Origin: Candidatus Saccharimonadota bacterium
Lineage (GTDB): Bacteria; Patescibacteriota; Saccharimonadia; Saccharimonadales; HK-STAS-PATE-42
Length of the DNA stretch: 64,000 bases
Direction of reading: 5' to 3'
Assembly (NCBI GenBank): GCA_036826375.1
Contig: DAISWL010000002.1
Location: 107,499 to 171,498, forward strand
Part shown: positions 1 through 64,000 of the stretch, one piece after another
Position numbering within the stretch: the stretch's first letter is position 1
How the letters are laid out: every line of letters starts with the position of its first letter
Notes under the pieces: generated by a model
Database searches by the model: none
What the model saw: the letters and a program-made list of their open reading frames with translations, nothing else
Told to the model about the DNA's origin: nothing
Made by a program: the position numbers and the translations under genes

Positions 1-269
1 TCACTAAAATGATTATGCAACCGTTCTTCATCTTTTTGAAGAGTGAACTGAGCAGCCCACGAAATAATTTGAGAATTGAAAAGTTTATTGAAGTACTTAA
101 ACTTAAGGGTGAAGATTACTTTATTTTTGAAATGCCGGGCAATAATCTAATTACCCAAACCTTCGCCACCTACATTTTTGTTGATCTAGTAACCCTGCAC
201 CTAGCCAATTTTTTGGATATCGACCCCGAACCCGTCGCCATGGTCGAAGCTTTCAAAGGGATGCTATAA
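1..269 (+). CDS. C-terminal fragment of a SIS-type bifunctional phosphoglucose/phosphomannose isomerase-like protein (5' end outside the window)
   Basis: The frame is open from the window edge to the TAA at 267-269. The tail ...LDIDPEPVAMVEAFKGML resembles the C-terminal domain of bacterial PGI/PMI proteins. Recognition is from memory only. Confidence 0.45.
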   Translation, partial: TKMIMQPFFIFLKSELSSPRNNLRIEKFIEVLKLKGEDYFIFEMPGNNLITQTFATYIFVDLVTLHLANFLDIDPEPVAMVEAFKGML

Positions 270-313
270 AGTTTTATGTAGCTGTTAAGCTTAAGGTGGG
301 TATTAGATAGGCC

Positions 314-2356
314 CTATTCTTTAGTTTCTTTAATAGAAAACGATATATTTTCGAGTGGGTAGTTTATGCGTTCAGAGATTTTACCCAAAAAATTAACTAT
401 TGAATTTGCGCTCATACCGCCTTCAACGAATTTTGACGTCGAAAACTCTAAAGGGCTCCTTAGTGGTTTGTTAATGTCAAAATACCACTTGAACTCTTCA
501 CTTTTTTGAATCTCTTGAAATTGTGTTGGGGAAAAATCATATAAAAATTTACAGACATTTGTAAGTAGGTCTCTCCACGTTTTTAGTTCAATACCCTTTT
601 CATCATCTTCTAAATAAAGATGGGATGGTTTGCTGCCACTAAAATTATCCTCACTTGTTAAATCAAAGATTTGTTCTTCTGGAATTGGTTTTGTGTAGCT
701 TGTCTTGGGGTATGGCCAAATGTCTTTTGAGTTTTTGATTAGATCTTTTGCTCTATCTATAATCTTTTCTTCATTCCAAGTTGTAATACCCTCTAGCTTA
801 AAATTCAACTTCAATCTGCTGGTTTGAAAATCAATTCGTTGCTTATCTTCAAAAGCGTTATTTGATAGCTCGGTATTTTTCGCAGTTAAACTTAAGTTCC
901 CTAGGGTGTGTAAATATTTTTTATGTACTTCTTGCCAATTGTCGCCCAGCCTGCTCTTCCATTCTTTCGTTAGAGTTTGGGGCATTATGTGCTCAACTGT
1001 TAGCTCGTCTACGTTTATTGGATAGGCTGATTTATAATTTTCTAAAGATTCCAACAAAAAATTTCTATTTTTAGATTGTAATCTGTAAACTTCTTTGTTC
1101 ACCAATGAATTTTCAAATTCTTCATCATTGGGGAATCTTTGTGAGGCTCTTTTTTCTAATACAATATAGCTTAAGATGTTTAGATAATCCTCTTTCCATG
1201 CCGTCTCTTTCTTTATTTCTTTAGAAAGAATAATGAACATTTTATTTAAGCCTTGAGTTGTATTATCTACCAAAATTTTTCTAAAAGCGTAGCTTTCAAT
1301 TATTTTTAAAATCTCTTCAACGGTTTTCTCAGAAACAACATTCTCTTTAAAATCATTGAATACATCTAACAAATAAGGATGCGAAACAGTGAATTCTAAT
1401 TTATTCAGCCTTTCGAGTTGTTTATTTACTGCACTATTTGGGTGTTTGATTGTTTGCACCAACCAGCCATAAATTTCTGCAAAATATAATAGATCTTCTA
1501 GAATAGATTCTTTATCTCGGTTAAATTCTTCTAGCGAGAATTTCTTGAATACGCTATAGACGTCATCTTTTTTAACCCATGTTTTAGTTTTAAAAATAAG
1601 ATAATTTCTAACAAATTCAGCCACGTTTTCTGTTAGTTTTTCTATTTTGATCCAGTAATCCTTATGCATCTTTTCTTGTTCCGATGGTTCTAAATCCATT
1701 AAGATGTAGTTGCGAATTAAATCTCCAGCTGTAAGATCAACCCCCGTAGAGTTTAGACTTTCAAAGATTAGTTGAGGGTCATCCTGCCCTCTAACTAAAT
1801 CAATTAGTACTATTTTTAGTTTTCTGAATGATTCGAACACCTCTCGTGGAGATATAGCTCCGGACTTTATTTTTTCATAAAAAAAATTAAAGTTACTTAC
1901 TATGTTTGAACTAGCATTCTCAGGATTTTCGTTTTCAAAAAGATTTTCAAAATATTCTTTATCTTGTTTATTTGGCTTCAATCTTATTCTTTTATCTTTT
2001 TCAGATGAGTATTTGTTGATTAAAAAATCTAGAATTTGTTCAGATAATACCTTCTCTTCATCATCTTTTTCTTCTTTATCTTTTAAAAAGGTGTGTAAGG
2101 CGATTAATAAAATAGAAGCGGTTGTTAGTCTTTGCTGGCCGTCGATAACTGTATATTCTTGGAACCCACTCCCAACCGTAACGATTGTGCCTAAAAAATG
2201 ATCAGCCCTAGTGTTATTTCTTAAATCTACTAAATCATCCCATAGCTTTTGGCAATTGATTCTAGTCCAGGCGTAATCCCTCTGATATACAGGAATTACA
2301 AAGCTTTTTCCTGAGCCTTCTAGAAATTGGTAGATTGGTAATTGTTGTACTTGCAT
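314..2356 (-). CDS. GmrSD-like type IV restriction enzyme (N-terminal DUF262 ParB-like domain plus C-terminal DUF1524 His-Me nuclease)
   Basis: 680 aa. The N-terminus has IPVYQRDYAW...DGQQRLTT (DUF262 signature). The C-terminus has TVEHIMPQ...LHTLGNLSL (DUF1524 H-N-H-like signature). Confidence 0.8.
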   Translation of the reverse strand: MQVQQLPIYQFLEGSGKSFVIPVYQRDYAWTRINCQKLWDDLVDLRNNTRADHFLGTIVTVGSGFQEYTVIDGQQRLTTASILLIALHTFLKDKEEKDDEEKVLSEQILDFLINKYSSEKDKRIRLKPNKQDKEYFENLFENENPENASSNIVSNFNFFYEKIKSGAISPREVFESFRKLKIVLIDLVRGQDDPQLIFESLNSTGVDLTAGDLIRNYILMDLEPSEQEKMHKDYWIKIEKLTENVAEFVRNYLIFKTKTWVKKDDVYSVFKKFSLEEFNRDKESILEDLLYFAEIYGWLVQTIKHPNSAVNKQLERLNKLEFTVSHPYLLDVFNDFKENVVSEKTVEEILKIIESYAFRKILVDNTTQGLNKMFIILSKEIKKETAWKEDYLNILSYIVLEKRASQRFPNDEEFENSLVNKEVYRLQSKNRNFLLESLENYKSAYPINVDELTVEHIMPQTLTKEWKSRLGDNWQEVHKKYLHTLGNLSLTAKNTELSNNAFEDKQRIDFQTSRLKLNFKLEGITTWNEEKIIDRAKDLIKNSKDIWPYPKTSYTKPIPEEQIFDLTSEDNFSGSKPSHLYLEDDEKGIELKTWRDLLTNVCKFLYDFSPTQFQEIQKSEEFKWYFDINKPLRSPLEFSTSKFVEGGMSANSIVNFLGKISERINYPLENISFSIKETKE

Positions 2357-2415
2357 ATTTTACGTCAGCTATGATTAAGAAAAATTGTTATCTTTATATA
2401 AACACCCTCGACTGA

Positions 2416-2504
2416 ATGTTCAGGCATACTCTACTAACCATTGTATAAGATTACGCTTTTTTGCGATATAGCCTAAATTAATAATTAGATGATTAAGCTT
2501 AAGT
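2416..2504. repeat. 89-bp direct repeat, copy 1 (downstream of the serpin gene)
   Basis: ATGTTCAGGCATACTCTACTAACCATTGTATAAGATTACGCTTTTTTGCGATATAGCCTAAATTAATAATTAGATGATTAAGCTTAAGT is identical to 3702-3790. Confidence 0.95.
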
Positions 2505-2523
2505 TAATAGATCCACTTAAGCT

Positions 2524-3701: not shown

Positions 3702-3790
3702 ATGTTCAGGCATACTCTACTAACCATTGTATAAGATTACGCTTTTTTGCGATATAGCCTAAATTAATAATTAGATGATTAAGCTTAAGT
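3702..3790. repeat. 89-bp direct repeat, copy 2 (overlaps the last codon and stop of miaA)
   Basis: Identical to 2416-2504. Its last 6 nt are the ACT-TAA end of miaA read on the minus strand. Confidence 0.95.
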
Positions 3791-6447: not shown

Positions 6448-6528
6448 GATTATTAATGTTCCTTACTGATTACTTTTATTTAAAAATAAGCTAGATTTTA
6501 TTTTTACATTAAGCTTAAGCTTATTATA

Positions 6529-6708
6529 TCAGTTTCGTTCAGCTTTGCCAGCTTTTTTAATAGCTACCAGCTTTTTACCGCTCTCACGCTTGGTTGTATA
6601 AACTTTTACTGGGCTAAGAGCGTTAACTCGTCTAGCTAAAGTTAGTACTAAATGGCTTCTTCTGAGGCCTTTCTTGCGTGGGCTAGTTTGTTTTTTAGGT
6701 TGAGCCAT
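6529..6708 (-). CDS. rpmF: 50S ribosomal protein L32 (59 aa, not in the supplied ORF track)
   Basis: My own translation of the minus strand gives MAQPKKQTSPRKKGLRRSHLVLTLARRVNALSPVKVYTTKRESGKKLVAIKKAGKAERN*. The PKK.TS..K...RRSH start is the bL32 signature. ATG is at 6708 and TGA at 6529-6531. Confidence 0.8.
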   Translation of the reverse strand: MAQPKKQTSPRKKGLRRSHLVLTLARRVNALSPVKVYTTKRESGKKLVAIKKAGKAERN

Positions 6709-6878
6709 TATTTCTCCTTATAAGAAAATTACTTTTATTTATTTTTTGGCTAATTAAAATTTTACCCTAGTTAAGCTTAAAAATCAACTTGACATAGTCA
6801 CAAACTTAGTGTATCATTTAAGATGACTATTTCGATTAAGCTTAACATTAAATTTTAATTATAATATGGAGAAAATCT

Positions 6879-21369: not shown

Positions 21370-21424
21370 GCGGTCATGCTTTGACGAACGTGCAAACTTA
21401 AAACTAATCGACAAAAAATAAATA

Positions 21425-27121: not shown

Positions 27122-27223
27122 CATGAATGACGATCTAACCCAAAAAGCCCTAGTGATACACAAAAAATTTGGAGGTAAAATCAGCATTAAGCTTAATGCT
27201 GGGTATAAAATCGTGCTAGAATA
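27122..27223 (+). pseudogene. Duplicated, diverged 5' fragment of the malic enzyme gene (33-codon ORF)
   Basis: MNDDLTQKALVIHKKFGGKISIKLN... against MNDDLTQQALAIHKKYKGKISIKLK... at 27735. About 65 of 76 nt are identical by eye. It stops 5 nt before the toxin ATG. Confidence 0.6.
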
Positions 27224-36665: not shown

Positions 36666-38723
<2,058 letters not shown>

Positions 38724-41441: not shown

Positions 41442-41755
41442 AAAGGGGTGAGTGGAATCGAACTTTAATTAACAGGGGTGATTACTATGAATATACTATT
41501 TTTCAGAAAAAGCCAGGAAAATTTAACGGGGGTGGAGTTCGATTACATTAGTCGAAAATTGAATTGGCAGGGGTACGTGGAATAAGCAGAGCTTGCGACC
41601 TGCAGCCATGCTCGTAGCAAGCTCCTGCGCGTGGCTTTGCTCTTCGAACGCACACTCTTACTCGCTTTGCTCGCTGAGCGTGGTCGTTTCACAAACACTA
41701 GCCAAGCAAAAACCCGACCTTATGGTCGGGTCTTAGCTTGGCAGGAGATAGCGGA
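41442..41755. repeat. Array of four to five degenerate copies of a tRNA 3' end (att-scar-like)
   Basis: AAAGGGGTGAGTGGAATCGAAC (41442), AACAGGGGTGATTAC (41471), AACGGGGGTGGAGTTCGATTAC (41525), TTGGCAGGGGT (41564, an exact 11-mer also at 51496) and TTGGCAGGAGATAGCGGA (41738). Compare the intact tRNA end TTGGCAGGGGTGATAGGACTTGAAC at 51496. Confidence 0.7.
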
Positions 41756-41868
41756 CGCATTTCAAACATCTGCTTTAGCTGCTAATGAAGATTATAAGCT
41801 AAAAAATCTAGTAGAACTATTCCAGCTTTCAGGCTCGTTATTAACAAGTGGAGTGGTGGTTTAGTAAT

Positions 41869-42183
41869 ATGAGTCTATCACAAAACAAACGTATAGGCAG
41901 ACCTACAATAATCACGCCAGATACTGTCAGGAAAGTCATAGTAGCTAGAAAGCGTGGCTTGAGCATAAGACAAGCCTGTGCGACCTCTGGTATATCTCAC
42001 GAAGCCTTTTACTACCATACTCGCCACAACCGTGAGTTTACTTACATTTTAGGGCTATCTCAGGACTCAATTAAGGAAAGAGCTAGACTAGGAGTTGTAG
42101 ATGCAATCATGCAGGGTGATTTAACAACCTGTAAGTGGTATTTAGAACGTAAAGACCCTGAGTTCAGAAAGTCAGGCAAATGA
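41869..42183 (+). CDS. Small helix-turn-helix protein (terminase-small-subunit/transposase-HTH-like)
   Basis: GRPTIITPDTVRKVIVARKRGLSIRQACATSGIS (HTH) and C-terminal KWYLERKDPEF. ATG at 41869 (the ORF track starts at the GTG at 41848). Confidence 0.45.
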   Translation: MSLSQNKRIGRPTIITPDTVRKVIVARKRGLSIRQACATSGISHEAFYYHTRHNREFTYILGLSQDSIKERARLGVVDAIMQGDLTTCKWYLERKDPEFRKSGK

Positions 42184-42482
42184 GCCAAGAAGAGGCTCTG
42201 AGATACTTTATAGAAGACTTCAGGTTGTATGTAGCATCTGTTCATTGGAAAACTGCTTGGTCATATCAAAAGTTTGCTCCTCATGAATACACGGTCTCTG
42301 ACTGGAACGTCCAGCGTAGACCCTGGTTCGAGCAAATGGTACTCGGTATAAGAAAATATGGCTACAAAGAAGACTTTGGTAAAACTACATATATTTACCT
42401 TAATCTAGACGGTAGAAAGTATTGGACTCAGGGCGCATCAGTGAAGCAAACAATTTTGATAAACAGGGCTAAACTTGGATAA
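42180..42482 (+). CDS. Hypothetical protein (PHEYTV ... YWTQG ... INRAKL motifs)
   Basis: 100-aa ORF overlapping the previous stop by 4 nt (ATGA). Family not confidently recognised. Confidence 0.4.
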   Translation: MSQEEALRYFIEDFRLYVASVHWKTAWSYQKFAPHEYTVSDWNVQRRPWFEQMVLGIRKYGYKEDFGKTTYIYLNLDGRKYWTQGASVKQTILINRAKLG

Positions 42483-42514
42483 CACTGCATCTAGAAAGGA
42501 ACGCTCGGTTGTTA

Positions 42515-45205: not shown

Positions 45206-45206
45206 A

Positions 45207-47342
45207 TTATACCTCTACCTCAATTATGCGAGTAGTATCATTTCCGAAGATATCTACTATTTTGATTGCGACTTTATACCTGCCACTTGTTACTTCCTTT
45301 GGGATTGTAACTAAATCAAGCTCTCTCTTTTTCTTTGTCCGAAAGCTCTGCCACTCATTGTCGAAAATATAATCGCCAGTCCATACTTCTTCATACTCCA
45401 ACAAATCTTGAACTTCACCCTTACCAAATAAATTATCTCCGTGAGTCTTTGGAACACGAATCATTTCTTTCCGACTAGAGAAGTCAAAATCTACCGCCCA
45501 GTAATCAATCCAGTCACTCCATTTTTTCGTAAGTATCTCTCTGGAGATAATTTCAGTATCTTTATCTTTCGAAACTTTTACTACCTGTCCATCCTCTACG
45601 ACGACCTTTGCTCCACCAGGGCGTAAAGCCTCGATAGTTTCGCCTGAATTATCCTGATTATAGAAGACCGAGAAGTCGAGCAGCTCAACTGATAGCTCCT
45701 TTTTCCCAGCAACACCTTTAATAATTGGTTTTGCATCGATAAAAGCTACATCGTAAAACTTTACATGACCACGTTCTACGGCTTTCTTATCAAATACTTC
45801 TCTAGGTATAATTCTAAAATTAACATCGATTCCTTGGCTTCCATATTCGTGAAAGTCTAGCCCCATTTCATAGTCAAAACCAAGTATATCTACTTTGGTT
45901 ATTCCTTTGCCCTTACACTCAGACACGATGTCGTGTACTTGTTGCGATGATACAGGAGTACTTATTGGTCCTACTGCGACAAGTCTGTCTCTTTTCTTTC
46001 CAACCATATTTACGAATGAATCAACACGTTCTGCACTATATGCTTTAATGATTAGCGTTATGAACTCTTCTTCTTTTCTAGCAGCTTGCTGAGCCATTTC
46101 ATCAGCACGCAAATCACTATTTATATTCAAGTAGTTTTCACGCTCATAGCGTCCTATATTAAGTATTTCAAAAGCACGGAAGTTAGTGCCATCCTTCTTG
46201 AGCTTTCGCTGAACTTCAATCATTCTTTTACGAGATGTATGCACTCCGAACTTACCTAAATCCGAACCAATCCATTTTCTGTTTAATCTTTCAGCTACTG
46301 CCATAGTCGTACCTGAACCACAAAAGAAATCTGCAATTAAATCCTCTTCATTTGTGGTTGCCTTGATTAGTCTTTCTAGAAGTATCTCGGCTTTCTGAGT
46401 AGGGTAGCCTACTTTCTCATCGCCTCTCAGAGCAGGTATCTCAATAAAATTATCAACCTTATTTTCCCAAACTTCAAAGTATGCTATCTTCCCATTTTCG
46501 TCTCTTACACGACTTGCCTTACCAGTCTTGGAATCGAAAACATGTTTACTAGCAGTGCGTGGCGTATCGAGTTTCTCATATACTTCGTTATAAATTGATT
46601 TACTCTTGTCCTTAGTGTAAAAAAAGATACTTTCGGTATTCTGATGAAACTTTTTAGACTTAGCCTTAAGTCCAACAGCCGTATAATGCACTACAAGTTC
46701 ATTTTTAAAGTTATTCTGACCAAATACCTCTTCAAGGATTACCCTCATGTAACCACTTAATCTCCAGTCACAGTGTACAAAAACACTTCCGTCTTCCGCC
46801 AGTAAGTCTCGCATAATAAGTAATCGCTCATAAATCATCGCTAAAAAGCTGTCAGCTCCTTTGCCCCAGGTGTCTCTATACGCCACCTCTTCAATGACTG
46901 ATGGTCTTTTAGTGAACGACTCTTCTCCCACTTCTATATTCATCGAGAAGTCTGCACCTACATCGAAAGGTGGGTCAATATATATCATCTTTAAACCACC
47001 CTGGGCTTCAATCTCGTTACGCATCGGTCCGTTTTTTAATGAAGAAAGTATGAGCTTGTTGTCACCCCAAATTAGCTTATTCGTCCATCCAGTAAGTTGC
47101 CTTCCACTGTCATCAAATAGCATTGACTGGAGCCCAATTTTCTCATCACTCCGTGGTTCATCTATTTGTTCAATAACTTGGAAAGGTAGGACAGTGCTGG
47201 TTACATCGTTATTTTTACCGTTCCAAAGCAATTCAACCTCACGGTCATCATCGAACAATAGAAATCGATACTTCTCAGGTAATGGTTTCCCAGCTTCTAG
47301 ATACTTTATGATGTCTCGTTTTTCGTTATCGCTTAAAGTCAT
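45207..47342 (-). CDS. mod: Type III-like DNA methyltransferase Mod subunit (beta-class, N6-adenine or N4-cytosine)
   Basis: IYIDPPFDVGADF (motif IV) precedes DFFCGSGTT (motif I). It sits immediately upstream of res with a 1-nt gap. Confidence 0.85.
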   Translation of the reverse strand: MTLSDNEKRDIIKYLEAGKPLPEKYRFLLFDDDREVELLWNGKNNDVTSTVLPFQVIEQIDEPRSDEKIGLQSMLFDDSGRQLTGWTNKLIWGDNKLILSSLKNGPMRNEIEAQGGLKMIYIDPPFDVGADFSMNIEVGEESFTKRPSVIEEVAYRDTWGKGADSFLAMIYERLLIMRDLLAEDGSVFVHCDWRLSGYMRVILEEVFGQNNFKNELVVHYTAVGLKAKSKKFHQNTESIFFYTKDKSKSIYNEVYEKLDTPRTASKHVFDSKTGKASRVRDENGKIAYFEVWENKVDNFIEIPALRGDEKVGYPTQKAEILLERLIKATTNEEDLIADFFCGSGTTMAVAERLNRKWIGSDLGKFGVHTSRKRMIEVQRKLKKDGTNFRAFEILNIGRYERENYLNINSDLRADEMAQQAARKEEEFITLIIKAYSAERVDSFVNMVGKKRDRLVAVGPISTPVSSQQVHDIVSECKGKGITKVDILGFDYEMGLDFHEYGSQGIDVNFRIIPREVFDKKAVERGHVKFYDVAFIDAKPIIKGVAGKKELSVELLDFSVFYNQDNSGETIEALRPGGAKVVVEDGQVVKVSKDKDTEIISREILTKKWSDWIDYWAVDFDFSSRKEMIRVPKTHGDNLFGKGEVQDLLEYEEVWTGDYIFDNEWQSFRTKKKRELDLVTIPKEVTSGRYKVAIKIVDIFGNDTTRIIEVEV

Positions 47343-47545
47343 TTGTTTTTCTCCATTATTTTCAATACATCTTCTTTGTGATATCGTCTATCGCCCCTTG
47401 TACCAATACGGACAGCCACTAGATAACCTTTTTTGTCCCAAGCCCTAAGAGTATTTGGATGACATCCAAGCATCTCACAAGTCTGTTTAAGTGTTAGTAG
47501 TTTTGGTCGTTTGCTACCAGATTGTGTCATACTATAAGTATACAC
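47339..47545 (-). CDS. MerR/excisionase-type (HTH_17) DNA-binding protein
   Basis: LLTLKQTCEMLGCHPNTLRAWDKKGYLVAVRIGTRGDRRYHKEDV. Its stop overlaps the mod start by 4 nt. Confidence 0.7.
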   Translation of the reverse strand: MYTYSMTQSGSKRPKLLTLKQTCEMLGCHPNTLRAWDKKGYLVAVRIGTRGDRRYHKEDVLKIMEKNK

Positions 47546-47578
47546 GACTTAATAGACTAGAAGTGCTCGGAAGATGTG

Positions 47579-48325
47579 ATGAAACATACTGCAAAAGAAC
47601 TACAAGACATAATTGACAAACTAGTGGTGCTTTTTAAGAGTGGAGAAGTTGAACTTCAAGAAGCAGCCGAACTTTCTCAAGAAGGTGAGAAGCTAGCTCG
47701 GAGAAATATATCGCCCAAAGAAGCTATAAAACACTGGGACAAGTCAGTGACAAGTATCCTAACCGGTTATTTTGGTGAGTCTAGTCTCTATGCGCAACAA
47801 TTTAGTAGCCCACTTTTGTCAGCCATAGAACTAGGAGTAAGCCCCAATTCTATAGCCGAGTATGCAAGTCATCTAGAAACACGTCTCGTCAAACTAGAGA
47901 GGATAATCTTCAGTATCGAAGAACGTAAACTTTCTACTATTCGCAAATCTACTTCAGAATATGAGTTAAGTAAATCTCCGAAGTACTGGCTTACTTACAA
48001 CGATATTCAGGGGATACTATATCTCCATAACTCAGATGGTATGAGAGTTATTTTAATACGGACGAATCTTGATTCCACATCAGATTCACTACTACAAGAA
48101 CTGTTTAATAACTCCGATGGCATTATTAATATAAAAGAGAGCGTGCTGCCTACTAAAATGATACCCTCCGTTCTTAGAGATATAAAGTTAACTCATGACC
48201 TTAAAAAGATATTCATCCCTAGAACAAATGGAAACAAGATTAGATTTCGGCGTGCAATTACTCATGAGGAGTTCAAGGATGAAGGGTACGATGAGCTGAA
48301 CTTCGCAAATTATGAGACAGCATGA
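47579..48325 (+). CDS. Hypothetical protein
   Basis: About 248-aa ORF divergent from the HTH-mod-res operon. I recognise no family. Confidence 0.4.
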   Translation: MKHTAKELQDIIDKLVVLFKSGEVELQEAAELSQEGEKLARRNISPKEAIKHWDKSVTSILTGYFGESSLYAQQFSSPLLSAIELGVSPNSIAEYASHLETRLVKLERIIFSIEERKLSTIRKSTSEYELSKSPKYWLTYNDIQGILYLHNSDGMRVILIRTNLDSTSDSLLQELFNNSDGIINIKESVLPTKMIPSVLRDIKLTHDLKKIFIPRTNGNKIRFRRAITHEEFKDEGYDELNFANYETA

Positions 48326-48422
48326 GCTTGAATGAGATGTAGTGAGCGAAAATAAGACTTACTGAGCCTACTAAATCGACATTTAGTTACTGTTATAACC
48401 TTGCAATCACGAGGTTATTTTT

Positions 48423-48635
48423 ATGAGTAAACAAATTAAAGTCGAGCCAATTAGAAACCAGTATAAGTTCAGTAAAAAGGAGCTGGATATAATACTGAGC
48501 AATGAGTCGATTGCCAAATTGACAGGCTTTCTAGACGTTCTCATACAAATGGACGTCGCACAAAAGCAAACTAAATCTCAAGAGGATAATAATGAATCAA
48601 ATGAAGATAAGCGAACTGAAGCTAACTCTAGTTAA
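48423..48635 (+). CDS. Hypothetical small acidic protein
   Basis: 70-aa ORF overlapping the next ORF. Confidence 0.3.
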   Translation: MSKQIKVEPIRNQYKFSKKELDIILSNESIAKLTGFLDVLIQMDVAQKQTKSQEDNNESNEDKRTEANSS

Positions 48636-48858
48636 GCCGAGTGAGAGTCTTGTAGGCTTTGCCAGTTGCATAATTAACGAATCACTCTATATAGGTTCTA
48701 TGGGAGTACACAAACGACTACTTGGAGGAGTTCGGATAGTGTACCCAAGGTATGTAGTAAAAGGTCGAAAGTTTAATTACTATCACCCAATCAACAACGA
48801 GTTGTCGAAGCTCATAGAGTCCGAGTTAGTGACTAAATACTCCGAGCTATCTAACTAA
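48592..48858 (+). CDS. SpoVG-like nucleic-acid-binding protein
   Basis: KLTLVKPSESLVGFASCIINESLYIGSMGVHKRLLGG...YYHPINNELSKLIESELVTKY parallels SpoVG (..AIASITLD..FVVHDIRV...IAHPIN...R..I...V...Y). Confidence 0.5.
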   Translation: MNQMKISELKLTLVKPSESLVGFASCIINESLYIGSMGVHKRLLGGVRIVYPRYVVKGRKFNYYHPINNELSKLIESELVTKYSELSN

Positions 48859-48869
48859 GTGCTCAGGCT

Positions 48870-49973
48870 ATGGTAGATACAGTGAAGCTATTACTTCGGA
48901 TTGATAACCCTATGAAGTTGAATAATGGGGGCTTTGTCCCTAGCGTATCCGATTTAGTACGAACTAGAGGCTTTGCTAAGTCTATAGTTTCTATAAAGTC
49001 ATATAGTAAATTAGGTACATACATGCCACGACTTACGTTGAATAAACGTATCTTAAATGGTCATGCAGTATACCAGCTAGGTGTCGAGTTTTCAGTTCCA
49101 AAATTGATTTATGGTAATAATTTTGAAGAGCTCTCGACACAAGATTTTGAAAAGACAATAGATATACTTCAATCCAAACTAAGCCTGCTGACAGGTTATA
49201 TTTTTAGTAAAGACGAGCTAAAGAACTCGGAAGTTACTACATGGCACCCTTCGAAGAACATAGTGTTTCGTGACTACACTTCCTGCATGGGAGTGTTAAA
49301 CACACTTCATAAGTTAGATGTAAGTAAAGTGTATGACGTTCAGAAGACTAATTTTCGAGATGGTCATGCATATCATATACACTGTAACTCTCTCGATATA
49401 GCCTTCTACGATAAGCTAAGTGACCTCAAACAAGCAAAGATTAGCGAGAAAAGAAGTCTTGAGTTCGATAGCCAAACACAGTTCAGGTTGCTGGATAGGT
49501 TTACGTCAATGAAGCCGCTGGAAATACTGAGATACGAAGTGCGTCTCGGTGGTAAGCGGAAAATCAAACGAACCTATCCTGGGATTAAAGAGCTAACTTT
49601 TGTAAACCTTTTTAAGACGGAGCTGTGCAAACAAGTGCTCCTCGCACACTGGAATAAACTAACCGCAGGACTCGATATGCTTGCTCAAGATTCAAGCCGT
49701 CCATTTGAGTTGCTACAAAATGTTCTACTAAGCAATGAAAAGGTAACCCCTAGAACGGCACTTGCACAAGTAGGTGGCTTAATGGTGGCGACACAAGAAG
49801 GTAGTAGAGGTTTGAGAGCGTTACTGGAGGCACGCTTTGGCAAGTCAGTATGGTCAAGTGTAAAACCAATAATGAAACAACCCAAAGCTCGTCGTTACGA
49901 GCAGTTAGTAAAGGTTGAGGAATCACTGAAGGAGTTCTCAGCAATTAGGTTGAGTGGTCTACGAAATCAGTAG
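48870..49973 (+). CDS. Putative rolling-circle (HUH) replication initiator, Rep_trans / gene II-X-like
   Basis: MVDTVKLLL start, HAYHIHCN (H-hydrophobic-H), IAFYDK and RYEVRL motifs reminiscent of Rep_trans-type initiators. From memory only. Confidence 0.4.
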   Translation: MVDTVKLLLRIDNPMKLNNGGFVPSVSDLVRTRGFAKSIVSIKSYSKLGTYMPRLTLNKRILNGHAVYQLGVEFSVPKLIYGNNFEELSTQDFEKTIDILQSKLSLLTGYIFSKDELKNSEVTTWHPSKNIVFRDYTSCMGVLNTLHKLDVSKVYDVQKTNFRDGHAYHIHCNSLDIAFYDKLSDLKQAKISEKRSLEFDSQTQFRLLDRFTSMKPLEILRYEVRLGGKRKIKRTYPGIKELTFVNLFKTELCKQVLLAHWNKLTAGLDMLAQDSSRPFELLQNVLLSNEKVTPRTALAQVGGLMVATQEGSRGLRALLEARFGKSVWSSVKPIMKQPKARRYEQLVKVEESLKEFSAIRLSGLRNQ

Positions 49974-50014
49974 ATATACATTGTTAAGTTATGGTAAGAT
50001 ATAAGGAGAATAAT

Positions 50015-51508
50015 ATGGATATTAAGCTAATACTAATCGCAAGAGTTTCGAACAAGGAGCAGACGATTGCGTTACCTGCACAAGAAAAGAGACTTAAGAA
50101 ATATGCGGAACAATCTGGCTATGCCTACGAATATCATGAGTTTGATGAGTCGGCTCATAAAGATATAAGAATCAAGTTCGCAGAACTAACACGTCACATA
50201 AAATCAGTTAAAGGTGAGTGCTGGGTCGTGTTTGATAAAGTGGACAGGTTCACACGAGATTCAAGCCAAAGTGAAGTTAAGATTTTGCAAGGTCTCGTGA
50301 AAGAAGGAAGAATTGAGTTACATTTTCCACATGATGGGTTGGTAATAACTAAGGAGTCCTCCGCATCTGACTGGTTCAGACTTGGAATAGGTATAGCACT
50401 TGCTAAGTATTACTCGGATGCTATCAGTGACAACGTTAAGCGAAGGTTTGAGCAGATGCTCGAAGATGGCATTTGGGTTCATAGGGCACCAATTGGATAC
50501 AAAAACGTCAGAATAGACGAGAAGAATACTTCAATCATAGTAGATGAAGATAGAGCTCATCATATCGTTAAAGCATTTGAAATGCGGTCCATGAGTTTAC
50601 CGTACGAAGTAATAGCAACGGAGCTAGCTAAAGAAGGGTTTATTGGCACAACCAGCAAAGCCGTTGCTCCTTCAAAGTCGTACTTAGAGAAAATAATAAA
50701 TAACTCATTCTACTATGGGGTAATGGTACACAACGGCAAGAAATACCAACATAAGTATCCACCACTAATTAGCCGTGAGTTATTCAACAAGTGTAAAGAC
50801 GTTAAAGTTCAGAGAAAGCACGACATGACCAAATACAACACAGAATGGTTTACATTCAAGAAGTTAGTAAGGTGTGGCAAATGCAAACGTGCGGTCTCCT
50901 CCTACTGGGGAAGAAAACAAGTTTACCTTCGCTGTAGCGGAAGTGGAAAGAGTAACTGTGGTAACCCTAACACTGCTGAGTCGTTGATTATTGGAGGTAT
51001 CGACAAGAGACTCGGTGAAATAGTAATCCCTGAGCAGTTCATTCCTCACGTCATCAAAGAGCTCAAACTTAGGCACGATAACCAGCAACTCTACTTCACA
51101 AGCAATGTTGAACAAACCAGAAAAGAGTACGATAAACTAAAGGAGAAGCTAAGTATTCTGTACTACGACAGACTCGATGGGCGTATTACACAGCAACAAC
51201 ATGACGAAATTGCTAACGAGTTCGAAGGTAAACAGCAAGAACTTAATGACAGACTCAAGTATTTGACAAAAGATAACAAGAGCTTTCAAGTAACTGCTTC
51301 ATACCTGTTAGACTTAGCTCAAAGAGCAGCAGATTTATTCAAATGTTCGAACTTCGAGTTAAAACAGAAGTTACTGGAATACCTTATTTCGAACGTTGAA
51401 CTTACGGACAAGAGATTGTCTTATAGCCTAAACGACCCCTTTAGAACAATCTCTGAAACATTAAAATTGGGTCAAAATACGAAAAATGAAAATGCTTGGC
51501 AGGGGTGA
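50015..51508 (+). CDS. Large serine recombinase (resolvase domain, recombinase domain, zinc ribbon, coiled coil)
   Basis: LIARVSNKEQ (catalytic Ser), CGKCKR...LRCSG...CGNPN zinc ribbon. AAGGAG sits 7 nt upstream of the ATG at 50015. The stop codon lies inside the tRNA acceptor 3' end. Confidence 0.9.
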   Translation: MDIKLILIARVSNKEQTIALPAQEKRLKKYAEQSGYAYEYHEFDESAHKDIRIKFAELTRHIKSVKGECWVVFDKVDRFTRDSSQSEVKILQGLVKEGRIELHFPHDGLVITKESSASDWFRLGIGIALAKYYSDAISDNVKRRFEQMLEDGIWVHRAPIGYKNVRIDEKNTSIIVDEDRAHHIVKAFEMRSMSLPYEVIATELAKEGFIGTTSKAVAPSKSYLEKIINNSFYYGVMVHNGKKYQHKYPPLISRELFNKCKDVKVQRKHDMTKYNTEWFTFKKLVRCGKCKRAVSSYWGRKQVYLRCSGSGKSNCGNPNTAESLIIGGIDKRLGEIVIPEQFIPHVIKELKLRHDNQQLYFTSNVEQTRKEYDKLKEKLSILYYDRLDGRITQQQHDEIANEFEGKQQELNDRLKYLTKDNKSFQVTASYLLDLAQRAADLFKCSNFELKQKLLEYLISNVELTDKRLSYSLNDPFRTISETLKLGQNTKNENAWQG

Positions 51509-51813: not shown

Positions 51814-51851
51814 TCCTATATAATCTTAAAATATTATATCACGATTTAAAC

Positions 51852-53206: not shown

Positions 53207-56200
53207 TTATTTATTCATACTTTTGTCAAATTGATCAATTGCAGCGCTGATTACTTGGTTAATCTCTGCTAAAGTTAAAGTTCGTTCGGTACTGCTAAAT
53301 TCTATTGAAAAAGTAATTTTTTTTGTTGAAGATTTCGCATCCGCCTGATAAATCGATACCGGCTTTAGGCTAAATTTAAGATCATATTCGGATATAATTT
53401 TTTCAAGCTTATGTTGCACTGTACTCAAAATTGAACGGGCTGGAACCTCTAAGGTGATATCTTGATGCACACTCGGAAACTTTGAAAGAGGTTGGTAGGC
53501 TGCATCTGTATTGAATAAATCTGCTAGCCCGTGGAGGTCAATCTCGAAACCAGCACTTGCTGCAGGCAACTTAAGTTTAAGCGCAGTTGATGAATTAATT
53601 GTACCGATGATCCCCGAAGGTTTTTCATCTATAAAAATAGTTGCGCTGTTAATGTGGCTGAACGGAGCTGTCACCGGAATTTTATCTCCAAAAAATTCGG
53701 CATCTGTTCTAACTAAACTGAACTTAATGTTGAGGTGTGCTAGCAACTGTTTCAAATAGAGCCCAGCCTGGTGATAAGCATCTTCGGCTGAACCATTTTT
53801 GTTGGCAACCACTAAACTTAAGCGGGCGAATTCCGCTGGAACTTGATCATCATGGGCATCTAGATGCCCCCGAACGTGGACCTTACCAATTTCAAACAGG
53901 CAGAATTGATCGAATCCATCTTTAATATTTTTATGGATTTGGTTGAGTAACGACGGCGTTAAACTTAAGCGATAATATTGTAAATCTGGGCTGAGGGCAT
54001 TGCGGATTTTGAACGCCAACTCTTCATTTTGATTAGCGGCATCAAGTAACTTGCCATGCACAAAACTATAATTAAGAGTTTCGTTGGCTCCAAGCTTGGC
54101 TAGATAACTTCTGATTTCCCGCTTAAGCTTAATGTTTTGATTAGTGTAAGCCGGTTCAATTTGCCTAACCTGCAACTGAGATGGAATTTGGTTAAAGCCG
54201 TGGATTCGGCCCACCTCTTCAATAATATCTTCTTCAATTTCAAGATCAGTTCTCCAGAATGGAATTGTGACTTCTAGCTGATCTTCTGAGATTATTTGGT
54301 TAAGTACGACTCTATTCCTATTTAAGTTGCTGCCGAAATGCTCAAGGCCATCATATTTAACCAGGCTACCATTAAGCATTTTAACGTTATATTCTCCATC
54401 GCTAAAAGGCACGAAATCATCGTCCGTTGAGTGTATTTGCACGAATGTATTAGATTGCTTACTTATTTTATTATAATTAAGTTTAGTTTGATAGAAACTA
54501 TTAAGTTTATCTTCTTCATTTCTAGGCTTGTCACTATTAGCGGCAACAAGAATGACTCTGTCTACAATCTGATCATACTGATTTAAATAATGTAACACCG
54601 CTAAGCCACCCTTAGAATGCCCCACTATAACCGTATCCTGATCGGGTTTAAGTTTAGATATAACTTCAACCCACTCGGAGAGGATTGGGTCGTTAAAGCT
54701 TGGCATATCTGGACAAATAAATTCTATACCCTTACTGTATAATTGCTCTCCTAGCCATGGATACCAGTAGCTTTGAGAATTCTTGTCTTGGCCGTGAATC
54801 AGAATAACTCTTTTAGCTTGTTTTCTATTAGCTTGAATTTCCACCCGCTCTAAAATCTCTTGAACTTCTTCAATTTTAAAGTTAGAACCAAGCACATTGT
54901 TTAGATTTTCTAAGCTTAAATGTAGAGTTTTGGCGGATTGGGATTTGACACCCTCACTTAAACTTAAGCCAATTTTTCCGTGAGCTAGGCTTTTATATTC
55001 ATCGGCAGTTTTGGCGGCGATGGCATCTATTTGAGCCGTTGGTTGACCCTTGGTGTAGCGAGTTACGGCATCGGTGAATAGACCGTGGCGCATACTGGTT
55101 CGGCGCACCGCGTACATATCGAAAGTGGCGGTTTCTAGCAAAATATTTTTAGTATTCTCATCAACTTCAGTTTCTTTGCCGCCCATTACTCCAGCAAGTG
55201 CAATCGCTTTATTTGGAGTAGCAATCACTACATCGGCAGAATTAAGCTTAATAGTTTTTCCGTTTAAAAGAGCTAGCTCTTCGCCCTCTTCGGCCTGGCG
55301 AACAATAATTTCCACCTCATTATTGCCACCCTCTCCATCTGGAGAGGGGCTGGGGGTGAGGTTTGATCCGCAAAGCTTTTTAAGCTTATCTAAATCGAAA
55401 GCGTGTTGAGGCTGAGCAGTTAAAATCATCATGTAGTTAGTAATATCTACCAGATTATTAATTGGCGTCATGCCTAAATTACGAAAAGTTGTTTGCATCC
55501 AACTTGGGGAATCCGCGACTTGAACATCTTCAATAATTGTAGCTCGATATTTGGTGCAAGCTTTAGAATTGACGGTAACCTTAAGCTTAGTATCTCTATT
55601 TTCTGACGGGGATCCTGAATCAAGTTCAGGATGACTATTTTTGAGGTACCAATTTGGGGATTTAAACTTCAAGCCTTGAATTGCAGCAATCTCTCTGGCA
55701 ATTCCAAGATGTCCAAAACAATCTGGGCGATGGGTGAACATTTTGTTTTCAAAATCAGCAATAACATCATTAAGCTCTAAAACTTGAGAGAGAAGATCGC
55801 CGGGTTTAATAGCCTCACCCTGGCTGGATCGAAGATCCAACCTGTCCCTCTCCTGAAGAGAGAGGGATTTAATTGTAACCTTAATTTGGGACAAAACGTC
55901 ATTCAAATTTTGTTCAATCTGCTGATTAGTGAAGCGTAAAATTGTGGACCCATTGGCCTCTAGATCTTCAGTTCTAACCTCATCGAGAGCTTGCTGGTCT
56001 GCAGAATTATGATAGCCACCATCAACTTCGATAATTAAGTTTAACTCAACCGCAAAAAAATCGGCGATATAATAACCAATTGCATGCTGTCTTCTGAACT
56101 TAACTCCTAATTTAGAAGCTCTGAGATGTTGCCACAGCGCCTCTTCAGCTTTAGTTGATTGCTTTCTATTTTCTCTGGAACGATTTTTAAGCTCTCCCCA

Positions 56201-56791
56201 CATACCAGGTTCTGATGAACTCAGAACGCTAGCCCCCTCTCCATTCAGGAGAGGGGCAGATTGGCGGAAGCCAGTCGGGGTGAGGCTTAACCCTAAATAC
56301 TCTCTAACATCCAAAATTCCACTATGATCATCGCCAAGGCCTAGCTCTTTTGCGCTAGCCAACATACCGTTAGAGGTTTGACCCCTAAGCTTAATGGTGG
56401 CGAGTTTGAAGGGTTCGGAATCTTTAGCGGTAGAAGGCACAATTGCACCAGGGGATATCCACGCCACAAACATGCCGGGCTTAACGTTTGGAGCTCCACA
56501 CACAACTTGAACGAGGCCGTTTTGATCACGAGCTAAACCGAGAGCTGCTTCGCCATCATCAATTTTTACAATTTTGAGTTTATCGGCATCCGGGTGGGGA
56601 TGCACCTCTTTCACTTCGGCCACAAAGATGCCCTCAAAAGCAGTTCCCAAATGTTCGATGCCTTCCAGCGCCCCAATTTGGGAATTGAGCTTTTCGGTTA
56701 GTTCTTCCGGGCTTAAGCTTAACAAACCATTAAGCTCTGGCCCGCCATACTTTTTGGAGTAGTAATTTCCTAAATTAAAAGAATACTTCAT
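53207..56791 (-). CDS. pheT: Phenylalanine--tRNA ligase beta subunit carrying three in-frame insertions
   Basis: N-terminal tRNA-binding OB domain (VVCGAPNV), B3_4 (THRPDCFGHLGIAREIAA), B5 (VTIPFWRTDLEIEEDIIEEVGRIHGF), FDX-ACB C-terminus. 1194 aa against roughly 800 typical. Confidence 0.9.
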   Translation of the reverse strand: MKYSFNLGNYYSKKYGGPELNGLLSLSPEELTEKLNSQIGALEGIEHLGTAFEGIFVAEVKEVHPHPDADKLKIVKIDDGEAALGLARDQNGLVQVVCGAPNVKPGMFVAWISPGAIVPSTAKDSEPFKLATIKLRGQTSNGMLASAKELGLGDDHSGILDVREYLGLSLTPTGFRQSAPLLNGEGASVLSSSEPGMWGELKNRSRENRKQSTKAEEALWQHLRASKLGVKFRRQHAIGYYIADFFAVELNLIIEVDGGYHNSADQQALDEVRTEDLEANGSTILRFTNQQIEQNLNDVLSQIKVTIKSLSLQERDRLDLRSSQGEAIKPGDLLSQVLELNDVIADFENKMFTHRPDCFGHLGIAREIAAIQGLKFKSPNWYLKNSHPELDSGSPSENRDTKLKVTVNSKACTKYRATIIEDVQVADSPSWMQTTFRNLGMTPINNLVDITNYMMILTAQPQHAFDLDKLKKLCGSNLTPSPSPDGEGGNNEVEIIVRQAEEGEELALLNGKTIKLNSADVVIATPNKAIALAGVMGGKETEVDENTKNILLETATFDMYAVRRTSMRHGLFTDAVTRYTKGQPTAQIDAIAAKTADEYKSLAHGKIGLSLSEGVKSQSAKTLHLSLENLNNVLGSNFKIEEVQEILERVEIQANRKQAKRVILIHGQDKNSQSYWYPWLGEQLYSKGIEFICPDMPSFNDPILSEWVEVISKLKPDQDTVIVGHSKGGLAVLHYLNQYDQIVDRVILVAANSDKPRNEEDKLNSFYQTKLNYNKISKQSNTFVQIHSTDDDFVPFSDGEYNVKMLNGSLVKYDGLEHFGSNLNRNRVVLNQIISEDQLEVTIPFWRTDLEIEEDIIEEVGRIHGFNQIPSQLQVRQIEPAYTNQNIKLKREIRSYLAKLGANETLNYSFVHGKLLDAANQNEELAFKIRNALSPDLQYYRLSLTPSLLNQIHKNIKDGFDQFCLFEIGKVHVRGHLDAHDDQVPAEFARLSLVVANKNGSAEDAYHQAGLYLKQLLAHLNIKFSLVRTDAEFFGDKIPVTAPFSHINSATIFIDEKPSGIIGTINSSTALKLKLPAASAGFEIDLHGLADLFNTDAAYQPLSKFPSVHQDITLEVPARSILSTVQHKLEKIISEYDLKFSLKPVSIYQADAKSSTKKITFSIEFSSTERTLTLAEINQVISAAIDQFDKSMNK
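54284..54829 (-). other. In-frame alpha/beta serine hydrolase domain (RBBP9/YdeN, PF06821-like) inserted in the B5 region of PheT
   Basis: VILIHG...YWYPWL...VGHSKGG (GxSxG)...IHSTDDDFVP (Asp)...GLEHF (His), i.e. PheT aa 655-836. Confidence 0.75.
55329..55363. repeat. In-frame hairpin repeat element inside the pheT B3_4 region
   Basis: CCCTCTCCATCTGGAGAGGGGCTGGGGGTGAGGTT, translated as NLTPSPSPDGEGG. Confidence 0.85.
55811..56288 (-). mobile_element. DUF559 (Vsr-like endonuclease) module bounded by about 56-bp imperfect terminal inverted repeats, inserted in frame in pheT
   Basis: PheT aa 169-327 include AEEALWQHLRASKLGVKFRRQHAIGYYIADFFAVELNLIIEVDGGYH...LEANGSTILRFTNQQI (DUF559 pattern). 56233-56288 and the reverse complement of 55811-55867 align (CCCTCTC..TTCAGGAGAGGG.CAG.TTGG...CCAG..GGGTGAGGCT). 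Confidence 0.8.
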
Positions 56792-62968: not shown

Positions 62969-63002
62969 GATTTTGGAAATAGCTCCTTCAAAACAGATTT
63001 AA

Positions 63003-63167
63003 TCACCTGCTTTTACCACCGAATCCTATAATAAACAGGACCACTGTAAAGAAAACTATCGCTACGTATAGCTTAAAAAGCTCAACTGGATCAGACATCG
63101 CAGCAGACATTAGTATGACAGCTAACCAAGTCATCAGAATGGTAACAAACACTGACATGTATTTCAT
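63003..63167 (-). CDS. Possible small two-TM membrane protein (54 aa, not in the ORF track)
   Basis: My own translation gives MKYMSVFVTILMTWLAVILMSAAMSDPVELFKLYVAIVFFTVVLFIIGFGGKSR*. No homology support. Confidence 0.3.
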   Translation of the reverse strand: MKYMSVFVTILMTWLAVILMSAAMSDPVELFKLYVAIVFFTVVLFIIGFGGKSR

Positions 63168-63239
63168 TTACATACAATTATAACACTAAAACTAGAATTT
63201 TTAAATACCCTGCCTTAGATGAGTGCCCATGAGGCTTCT

Positions 63240-64000
63240 TTAGCTAATCAATATTAAATAGAAAAACCATGCGATTACAATAATTATAATCATAATAGAC
63301 ACTATATCTATAAGCCCCAGCCTAGGTTCTCTAACGCCAGCAGCTTTAGCTTTGTTCGACTTCTCTATTTCGCCAAATTTGTAATCATGAGCTACGAATT
63401 CTTTTTCTTCAGCTATATTACGCTTAAAGGCGTAACCACCTTCAGTTATAGTCGCAACCATAGAGTAGCCCGAAGGCTTTTTATCGGCATTCCTGATAAT
63501 AATAGATTCAGCACTAAAAATCATATCAGTACCATTGTGTTCCGTCTCATTCTTTAGGCTTTCCCTAAACTCTTCGCGTTCGATAACCGTTTTAGGCATG
63601 GAGTTACCAACCTCAACCCGCGAAGACGTTAGTGTCTCATCATAGCCATCTTCTTCTATGTAGCCCTCGTTTATAAGCGAATTGTCCGTTATTTCAGCTC
63701 TCTCTTCCGCTTCTTTACTTGGATCTTGGTATAGAACATGTGCAATCTCTTTCCGAGAAAGATCTTCATCGAGATTGGTAGCCTTAATAGTCTTTTTTCT
63801 TCTGAGGTTAATCCCAAAACGAGTCTTTTTAATCTTTTTATCACCATCTTCAGTAGGTTCGGGGACCAACTCTAAATCGCTAGACGCATCATTGCTTATA
63901 CTGTCACGCGGACCAAGCGGTTTTTCTGGCGGGCTCTCTACGATTGGTGAGCTGATAGGCTTTTTGTGGATTTTAACTCCCGGTAGTATTATCGGCTTTT
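63240..64000 (-). CDS. Hypothetical protein with C-terminal TM anchor (5' end outside the window)
   Basis: The frame stays open upstream of the TTG at 63869 to the window edge (...KPIILPGVKIHKKPISSPIVESPPEKPLGPRD...). The C-terminal helix is IVSIMIIIIVIAWFFYLILI. Confidence 0.4.
   Translation of the reverse strand, partial: KPIILPGVKIHKKPISSPIVESPPEKPLGPRDSISNDASSDLELVPEPTEDGDKKIKKTRFGINLRRKKTIKATNLDEDLSRKEIAHVLYQDPSKEAEERAEITDNSLINEGYIEEDGYDETLTSSRVEVGNSMPKTVIEREEFRESLKNETEHNGTDMIFSAESIIIRNADKKPSGYSMVATITEGGYAFKRNIAEEKEFVAHDYKFGEIEKSNKAKAAGVREPRLGLIDIVSIMIIIIVIAWFFYLILIS

Follow-up and report, generated by a model that had tools for sequence, protein, structure and literature searches.

A 64-kb window of a Candidatus Saccharimonadota genome (64,000 nucleotides of contig DAISWL010000002.1; G+C content 39%) was found to carry 69 exact copies of the palindromic octamer TAAGCTTA, hereafter the word. 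This over-representation is real and highly significant. Point substitutions have introduced the word into the native DNA of one Saccharibacteria clade; the word marks native DNA and is missing from recently acquired DNA. Very probably, TAAGCTTA is a DNA-level word of the type described in cyanobacteria as highly iterated palindromes (HIPs), maintained by selection or by drive. Elements of this kind are known and still unexplained; one is newly seen here in Saccharibacteria, together with a second word in another lineage. Our favoured reading as a whole, that the word is a HIP-type element and also a self tag linked to natural transformation, is held tentatively, with a confidence a little short of even.

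Abundance, anatomy and placement of the word

The density of the word is 1.08 copies per kb overall and about 1.3 per kb outside an integrative island, and the 10-mer TTAAGCTTAA occurs 33 times in the window. The copies start at the following positions.

Native chromosome segment 1..41464, 52 copies: 286, 2494, 3780, 3868, 4111, 4471, 4646, 6510, 6516, 6772, 6837, 7445, 7833, 8534, 8576, 9156, 12821, 12911, 13801, 14437, 14585, 17242, 21974, 22523, 23515, 24297, 24763, 25899, 26062, 26831, 27188, 27456, 27800, 28187, 28265, 28441, 28875, 29409, 30059, 30299, 31352, 34553, 36267, 37874, 37922, 38096, 38442, 38810, 39397, 39646, 39903, 40334
Native segment 51497..64000, 17 copies: 51963, 53132, 54124, 54911, 55243, 55381, 55582, 56386, 56714, 56792, 58526, 58652, 58823, 59252, 59973, 60643, 62200

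The recount matched the figure of about 69 given by the first-pass annotation exactly, and corrected several of its coordinates by 1-10 bases (true starts 286, 4471, 6772, 6837, 13801, 14437, 17242, 21974, 22523, 26831, 28187, 39397, 40334, 56792, 59252 and 62200). The word is the most frequent of all 65,536 octamers in the window, and the next octamer families by frequency are its overlapping shifts and its two central-transition variants. These variants, TAAGTTTA (31 copies) and TAAACTTA (38 copies), together amount to 69, in keeping with the "several dozen" noted before. AAGCTT occurs 105 times; 36 of these fall outside the octamer, compared with an earlier estimate of about 15 variants that retain AAGCTT and match seven of the eight bases.

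Chance expectation was evaluated with several null models. Dinucleotide-preserving shuffles (n = 100) gave an expectation of 2.9 copies and a largest value of 7, a 24-fold excess for the observed count, and a third-order Markov model predicted 4.6 copies per strand (15-fold). At order 4 the expectation was 13 per strand, and at orders 5-6 it came near the observed count only because the 6-7-mers used by these models are almost wholly derived from the motif (of the 78 occurrences of TAAGCTT, 69 lie in it). Furthermore, a synonymous-codon shuffle within each gene, which kept proteins and codon usage, yielded 5.8 ± 2.3 copies (largest 13) and a codon-order shuffle 2.0, as compared with the 55 copies present in genes; the two shuffles rejected a codon-usage or dipeptide effect as the cause. 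The claim of over-representation therefore holds under the shuffle, Markov order 3-4 and codon-aware nulls, and the possibility, raised with that claim, that a codon- or Markov-aware null might reproduce the count was not borne out.

Alignment of the flanks of all copies showed information only at ±1 (T/A 72%, C/G 20%) and about none beyond. The unit is the symmetric YTAAGCTTAR, that is (Y)TAAGCTTA(R), of 8-10 bp, and each copy lies in unique surroundings. As described before, the octamer is a perfect palindrome with the HindIII site AAGCTT as its core. A longer dispersed repeat, a repetitive extragenic palindrome or a miniature inverted-repeat transposable element was rejected, as the flanks are random past ±1 and share no extended consensus or terminal structure; the suggestion that all copies might belong to one longer repeat is thus answered in the negative. 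Palindromy past the word occurred at chance frequency except at two sites (21971-21984 and 27182-27201), and local duplication accounts for only 2 of the 69 copies (2494 and 27188). Regular spacing was looked for within the window and was not found (coefficient of variation 1.17). The unusual arrangements are as follows.

6510..6523, in a spacer: two overlapping copies, TAAGCTTAAGCTTA
27182..27201: 20-bp perfect palindrome CAGCATTAAGCTTAATGCTG centred on copy 27188, upstream of a MazF-like gene (27229-27675)

The left half of CAGCATTAAGCTTAATGCTG matches malic-enzyme sequence around the copy at 27800, and by this similarity copy 27188 is probably a local duplication. The spacer 27130-27201, upstream of the MazF/PemK-like toxin gene, holds a sequence that nearly repeats one in the 5' part of the malic-enzyme gene at 27786-27810 (GGTAAAATCAGCATTAAGCTTAA vs. 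GGCAAAATCAGCATTAAGCTTAA), which may be a remnant of the toxin gene insertion or an operator.

Among the 12 classes of single-mismatch variants, central transitions alone were enriched (69 vs. 9.8 expected), and outer-base variants were at or under expectation. AAGCTT without the T...A frame was not enriched (36 copies; observed/expected ratios of 0.2-1.4 for position-1 variants), nor was the double-transition form TAAATTTA (8 vs. 5.4 expected). In spacers, where coding constraint is absent, the centres were GC in 14 cases, GT in 12, AC in 6 and AT in 3, with 5 transversion forms together. Within genes, centre changes are nearly all transitions. The genetic code forces this, with Lys AAR and Ser AGY being two-fold sites, and the pattern is no sign of deamination.

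Most genic copies (39 of 55) read xxT-AAG-CTT-Axx (Lys-Leu) and the other 16 read xTA-AGC-TTA (Ser-Leu); the codon pairs AAG-CTT and AGC-TTA occur 52 and 21 times in the window genes. The frame in which the word reads TAA was found only where TAA is the stop codon. This was the case in the three genes named by the first-pass annotation (stops at 3785, 26833 and 28877).

3780..3787: copy supplying the stop codon of miaA (3785-4585, - strand; TAA on the - strand)
26831-26838: copy supplying the stop codon of a TrhO-like gene (+ strand)
28875-28882: copy supplying the stop codon of the malic enzyme gene (+ strand)

Spacers are about twice as dense in the word as coding DNA, with 14 copies in or touching 5.9 kb of non-coding sequence vs. 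55 in 58 kb of coding sequence, whereas the intergenic density had been described as about the same as that of genes. The non-coding fraction in this comparison is slightly overestimated, since a small basic ORF (open reading frame) on the - strand, at 6530-6712 and starting from 6709 with MAQPKKQTSPRKKG..., was missed by the gene list, which takes ORFs of at least 60 amino acids; it probably encodes a ribosomal protein. Example host genes are listed below.

36666..38717, - strand: ligA, 4 copies and 6 transition variants
53207..56791, - strand: pheT, 7 copies and 8 variants, several of them position-conserved in the relatives L093 and L095
56945-58336: aldehyde dehydrogenase gene in native segment 51497..64000, no copies

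Two synthetases of the window have unusual architectures. PheT (53207-56791, - strand; 1194 aa) contains two in-frame inserts, a DUF559 domain at aa 201-307 (E = 2.5e-30), whose fold is that of a Vsr-like endonuclease, and, at aa ~661-819, an alpha/beta serine hydrolase. Both are present in L092 (1198 aa) and absent in L093 (839 aa) and L095 (949 aa). LeuRS (7314-10364, - strand; 1016 aa) has long stretches that match no family. Precomputed Pfam hits place a NUDIX domain inside the synthetase in many Saccharibacteria LeuRS homologs (e.g., P0121, P0124 and P0131), and the window LeuRS gave no NUDIX hit at E ≤ 0.01.

Native DNA, acquired DNA and conservation among relatives

The sole long word-free gap in the window (40341-51963) contains an integrative island. 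Alignment with the 97%-identical sister L092, which lacks the island, showed an insertion of 41465-51496 exactly at the 3' end of tRNA-Trp.

41465..51496: integrative island adjoining the 3' end of tRNA-Trp, 0 copies and 0 variants
42515-45205: BPTD_3080-family restriction enzyme (island)
45207-47342: N6/N4 methyltransferase (island)
47339-47545: HTH_17 excisionase-like gene (island)
49991-51508: large serine recombinase (island)
51497-51573: tRNA-Trp

The restriction enzyme and the N6/N4 methyltransferase form a Type III-like restriction-modification pair, and the island also holds a SpoVG-like ORF. L088 and L090, of the same species, carry other cargo at the tRNA-Trp site (PLD-like, metal-sensing repressor and DUF305 genes). 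The stretch 51555-51813 is tandemly duplicated with a 123-bp period and takes in the 5' part of tRNA-Trp; 23 nt recur exactly at 51555-51577 and 51678-51700. L092 also has these 136-bp segments in duplicate.

Outside the island, the following genes were also free of the word.

314-2356, - strand: GmrSD type IV (modification-dependent) restriction enzyme, no word
2524-3582: orphan ORF, no word (block 314-3582)
6879-7298: orphan ORF, no word
17949-21065, + strand: Type ISP/MmeI-like methyltransferase protein of 1038 aa, no word
21425-21967: orphan ORF, no word (block 17949-21967)

The copy-free genes outside the island have no ortholog at the syntenic position in L122 and L123; therefore, these blocks are accessory too. 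The GmrSD gene and the gene at 17949-21065 are defence genes in variable slots. The 17949-21065 protein combines N6 methyltransferase, Eco57I/MmeI-like and Type ISP C-terminal specificity domains; neither a nuclease nor a helicase domain was returned for it by the Pfam scan. Its slot, between hisS and the RRM gene, is occupied in the L093 genome by a KAP NTPase and an AAA protein. The accessory ORF 2524-3582 lies between two exact copies of a 25-nt direct repeat, AATAATTAGATGATTAAGCTTAAGT (at 2480-2504 and 3766-3790); the second copy overlaps the miaA stop codon, and word copy 2494 derives from the repeat. From its position, AATAATTAGATGATTAAGCTTAAGT looks like a target duplication or an att-type repeat from insertion of this ORF. 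In practical terms, the word is a sharp native/foreign marker by which the borders of the tRNA-Trp island and of the defence islets are placed to the nearest gene, and it could help to bin metagenome contigs of the word-bearing clade.

Close relatives were found by protein search and contig look-ups (a metagenome LigA scan gave one distant locus only), and their densities were measured on sampled loci or syntenic regions. The nearest genome representatives are only ~60% identical to the window in TyrS.

L092: LigA 98% identical, 1.59 copies per kb
L096: LigA 81%, 1.85 copies per kb
L093 (899-kb contig): LigA 77%, 1.77 copies per kb
L122 (second region of the same 899-kb contig as L093): 0.98 copies per kb
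L095 (886-kb contig): LigA 71%, 1.54 copies per kb
L123 (further lineage): 1.18 copies per kb
About 20 other Saccharibacteria loci: TyrS ~46-61%, 0-0.1 copies per kb (L017: 3 copies, 0.23)
L124: GC content 0.49, 0.09 copies per kb

The word is a trait of one Saccharibacteria clade, and in all genomes that bear it, its transition variants roughly equal it in number. Since independent assemblies from ENA, JGI, NCBI and Logan contain the window species and carry the word, an assembly artefact is excluded. A second palindromic octamer, TTCGCGAA, was found in L019 (CAXYVX010000003.1, a Saccharibacteria metagenome-assembled genome, 1-21200), with 50 copies in 21.2 kb vs. 6.4 expected. Its copies are dispersed, with flanks that are A-rich on the 5' side, T-rich on the 3' side and otherwise unconserved, and its one-off variants are mostly outer-base (TCGCGA with T...G, 10 copies). 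In L091 (Ga0172377_10000024, 1-21935; LigA 37% identity), a T-N6-A palindrome, TAGATCTA, occurs 12 times vs. 3.8 expected, a weak excess that may be due to chance. Viral contigs were scanned for two 10-mers 5-35 bases apart; all 25 hits were at background density, none was word-rich, and they are therefore chance pairs.

The conservation of positions in relatives, a check proposed together with the initial observation, was evaluated on codon alignments of 12 and 11 orthologous genes from two regions, in which third positions are near saturation (45-50% identity). The word was retained above control octamers in all three comparisons.

L093/L122 genome: 14 of 42 window copies still exact (33%), controls in the same frames 8.5% (Fisher p = 5e-6)
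L095: 10 of 25 window copies still exact (40%), controls in the same frames 5.3% (Fisher p = 3e-7)
L123: 7 of 15 window copies still exact (47%), controls in the same frames 7.1% (Fisher p = 3e-5)

At sites where all overlapped amino acids were identical, retention of the word reached 52-75%, vs. 14-15% for controls. With transition variants counted along with the exact motif, and without this restriction on amino acids, retention was 48-77%. The synonymous outer bases of the word were kept in 70-84% of cases vs. a 47% baseline, and the central base in 57-72%. From one genome to another, many sites change their centre among GC, GT and AC with the outer six bases fixed; in ligA, several words lie at orthologous codons of genomes that are 71-77% identical in LigA, and the centre toggles among the same three forms at the same site. 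In addition, some copies are lineage-specific, with 3-5 of the 8 bases different in the other genomes, amino-acid changes included. Sites are therefore both preserved and newly made in each lineage. The codon-aware nulls, the spacer enrichment and the hold on synonymous positions agree with the earlier reading of a DNA-level signal that is not a codon effect. The word also shows that a force acting on DNA can be strong enough to shape proteins in a genome of ~0.9 Mb.

Candidate mechanisms

In the favoured reading, the word would act as a "self" tag in natural transformation. Conspecific word-bearing DNA, possibly methylated, would be preferentially bound, taken up, or recombined after uptake, and word-bearing alleles would thereby replace word-less alleles, a molecular drive of the kind modelled for uptake sequences. 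Such a drive would keep old sites and create new ones in native DNA, and newly acquired islands would be without the word. From the two-fold symmetry of the word we infer that a symmetric (dimeric) protein recognises it in duplex form, and a word specific to one clade, with another word elsewhere, suggests a swappable specificity module that is methyltransferase- or restriction-like. Saccharibacteria are tiny epibiotic bacteria and are naturally transformable through ComEC, as shown in cultivated members (PMC10633639). In cyanobacteria, methylated HIP1 raised natural transformation of Synechococcus PCC 7002 up to >100-fold (bioRxiv 10.1101/2024.09.10.611283), and HIP1 abundance covaries with pilus and competence genes, for which it was proposed as a DNA-uptake signal (bioRxiv 10.64898/2026.06.24.733823). 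By analogy with these preprints, the uptake-signal idea of the first-pass annotation is kept as a plausible hypothesis, and a transformation-linked mechanism, taken by itself, is possible at slightly less than even likelihood.

Several observations weigh against this reading. To our knowledge, all experimentally established uptake signals (Neisseria DNA uptake sequences, DUS, and Pasteurellaceae uptake signal sequences, USS) are asymmetric. Competence and pilus genes are universal in Saccharibacteria and the word is confined to one clade, which requires another source of specificity. None of the window genes encodes a methyltransferase plausibly specific for AAGCTT or TAAGCTTA, and the three methyltransferase/restriction genes of the window are accessory and word-free. 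The spacing in the window is irregular. Mismatches are central here and at outer positions in HIP1 (PMC4390886); therefore, the recognition logic differs. Moreover, the link between HIP1 and transformation rests on the two preprints cited above, and a role in chromosome structure was favoured by others (PMC5861425).

The first-pass annotation had pointed to a type IV pilus ATPase, which was identified as PilB-like and is the only competence-related gene in the window.

32555-34195, + strand: PilB-like type IV pilus / T2SSE ATPase (PF00437, E = 9e-85), no copy of the word

Because this ATPase is universal in Saccharibacteria and the word occurs in one clade, its presence is no evidence for an uptake signal. 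No comEA, comEC, dprA, minor pilin or uptake receptor gene was found among the window ORFs, and no pilin-like N-terminus was found in the orphan ORFs of the window. An RNA-level role of the word was rejected; Rfam returned only tRNA-Trp in the window, and nothing suggested an RNA motif.

A bolder form of the transformation reading would make TTAAGCTTAA a genuine signal by which this clade recognises its own DNA in natural transformation. No uptake or recombination signal before it would have been palindromic, and none would have come from Patescibacteria or the Candidate Phyla Radiation. The words of other lineages (TTCGCGAA) would have evolved independently, and such clade "passwords" would channel exchange and exclude the high-GC DNA of actinobacterial hosts. 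We regard this as rather unlikely on present evidence.

The best-surviving alternative, which is itself rather unlikely, holds that the word has no uptake role and is a by-product or tool of methyltransferase-linked repair. An orphan methyltransferase would read the word or its core; a mismatch nuclease would convert near-matches to the word (Elhai's ratchet for HIP1) or need a density of sites for strand discrimination (as Dam/MutH), and selection or biased repair would keep about one site per kilobase. The 6-bp cores are consistent with this idea, being the type II sites AAGCTT (HindIII) here and TCGCGA (NruI) in L019, as is the wholesale switch of word specificity between lineages, which methyltransferase specificities also undergo; in cyanobacteria, the "alternate HIPs" of some lineages go with cognate methyltransferases (PMC4390886). 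In addition, T>C changes at the TAAGTTTA centre between the window and L092 (3 of 31 vs. 2.1% at other T) hint at a restoring bias toward the word, although the hint consists of three events. However, AAGCTT outside the T...A frame is not enriched, so recognition spans all 8-10 bp, which is unusual for methyltransferases. No 5-methylcytosine deamination footprint was seen, as C>T changes between the window and L092 at motif cytosines (3 of 68) did not exceed those at other cytosines (3.1%), and the T-variant is enriched, whereas very-short-patch-type repair would predict its depletion. Furthermore, HIP1 conservation was argued to exceed what biased repair can yield (PMC5861425). Two candidate components were rejected as well. 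The Vsr-like DUF559 insert of PheT and the word do not go together, as L093 and L095 carry the word without the insert, and the window methyltransferases (17949-21065 and 45207-47342) are accessory, absent from word-bearing relatives and of types that recognise asymmetric sites.

Less probable still is that the copies are binding sites of an abundant chromosomal protein acting in nucleoid organisation, segregation or cohesion and selected site by site, as Xu et al. read HIP1. Strong positional conservation, also at identical amino acids, fits this proposal; a palindrome suits a dimeric binder, and a centre that tolerates transitions between fixed TTAA half-sites is typical of two-half-site operators. 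It would, however, call for ~1,000 or more sites per ~0.9-Mb genome, far above known nucleoid landmarks. The sites show no regular spacing in the window, sister lineages manage without such a word, and no candidate protein was identified.

A Chi-like recombination hotspot, which would modulate how a helicase-nuclease acts, or how RecA is loaded, on incoming or broken DNA, is improbable. An octamer that is over-represented in native DNA and absent from foreign DNA is compatible with it, Kamoku and Nielsen described Chi-like behaviour of HIP1 inside homology arms (bioRxiv 10.1101/2024.09.10.611283), and a palindrome would read alike whichever single strand enters the cell. Known Chi sites, however, are asymmetric and skewed toward one replication strand, which a palindrome cannot be, and the window contains no RecBCD or AddAB gene.

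Finally, the absence of any signal, the count being due to codon usage, Lys-Leu/Ser-Leu dipeptides, composition, a longer repeat or an artefact, was tested and rejected and retains a negligible probability: 80% of the copies lie in genes and use common codons, and the copies at 2494 and 27188 stem or probably stem from repeats, but the codon shuffle, the random flanks, the richer spacers and the independent assemblies contradict it, as does the lack of the word in an island of the same composition and in related genomes of similar GC content.

Comparison with known systems

The density of the word falls in the range of DUS and USS, as first noted. Like the DUS (GCCGTCTGAA family, Neisseriaceae) and the USS (AAGTGCGGT core, Pasteurellaceae), the word occurs about once per kilobase and on both strands, in excess in spacers and at gene ends. 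It is likewise scarce in recently acquired DNA, shares positions between related species, has enriched one-off variants, is placed where proteins tolerate it, and belongs to an organism from a competent phylum with type IV pili. This likeness concerns population-genomic behaviour only and is no argument for homology. DUS and USS are asymmetric 9-12-mers with dedicated receptors (ComP-type minor pilin), whereas TAAGCTTA is a perfect palindrome and does not form inverted-pair terminators. Membership in the classical DUS/USS family is not supported, and a search of a full-text library found no paper joining Saccharibacteria with "uptake sequence".

Chi (GCTGGTGG in E. coli) is also an over-represented octamer that marks native DNA. 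In contrast to the word, it is asymmetric, skewed with replication direction, present about once per 4-5 kb and acts on RecBCD/AddAB; TAAGCTTA is palindromic, and strand skew is therefore impossible for it. With type II restriction-modification sites the word shares its core hexamer, a classic palindromic site of this type (HindIII AAGCTT). Such sites are normally avoided, whereas here the hexamer is enriched, and only inside the T...A frame.

The better-fitting and closest known class is that of cyanobacterial HIP1 and the alternate HIPs (Robinson 1995; Elhai 2015, PMC4390886; Xu, Lawrence and Durand 2018, PMC5861425). HIP1 (GCGATCGC) is an octamer palindrome that is 15-300-fold over-represented; its conservation, inside ORFs and between them, exceeds what codon and peptide effects explain and is weaker for its one-mismatch forms (PMC5861425). 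HIP-type words are also described as periodic on a 10-90 kb scale; over the shorter distances covered by the 64-kb window, the spacing of TAAGCTTA is irregular. The word is likewise a perfect palindromic octamer extendable to 10 bp, at least 15-fold over expectation and on the order of one per gene or kilobase, and it lies in genes and spacers with random flanks, so that it, too, was made by substitution and not by transposition. Its sites are retained at orthologous positions far above control octamers, to a degree that codon or peptide effects do not account for, and one-mismatch forms are also kept, less strongly. As with the alternate HIPs, lineages can carry different palindromes (TTCGCGAA in L019), and the host phylum is naturally transformable, as for HIP1.

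The differences are equally clear. The word is AT-rich with a HindIII core and HIP1 GC-rich with a PvuI/Dam core; the word is found in Patescibacteria/Saccharibacteria with genomes of ~0.9 Mb and is confined to one clade, whereas HIP1 is nearly phylum-wide. Its one-mismatch forms are central transitions and those of HIP1 lie at the first and last bases (PMC4390886), a bias that TAAGCTTA lacks and that the outer-base variants of TTCGCGAA in L019 do display.

HIP1 has been a puzzle for 30 years and, as far as we know and the literature searched shows, has been treated as a cyanobacterial peculiarity. An independent, AT-rich counterpart in another phylum, where a sister lineage has a word of its own, suggests that hyper-abundant palindromes occur generally and can be re-targeted. 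It also offers a second system in which an uptake or recombination tag, methyl-directed repair and chromosome structure can be told apart. Saccharibacteria genetics is young, and if the HIP1 result carries over, TTAAGCTTAA, possibly methylated, in donor DNA could raise the transformation efficiency of this clade, as methylated HIP1 did in Synechococcus.

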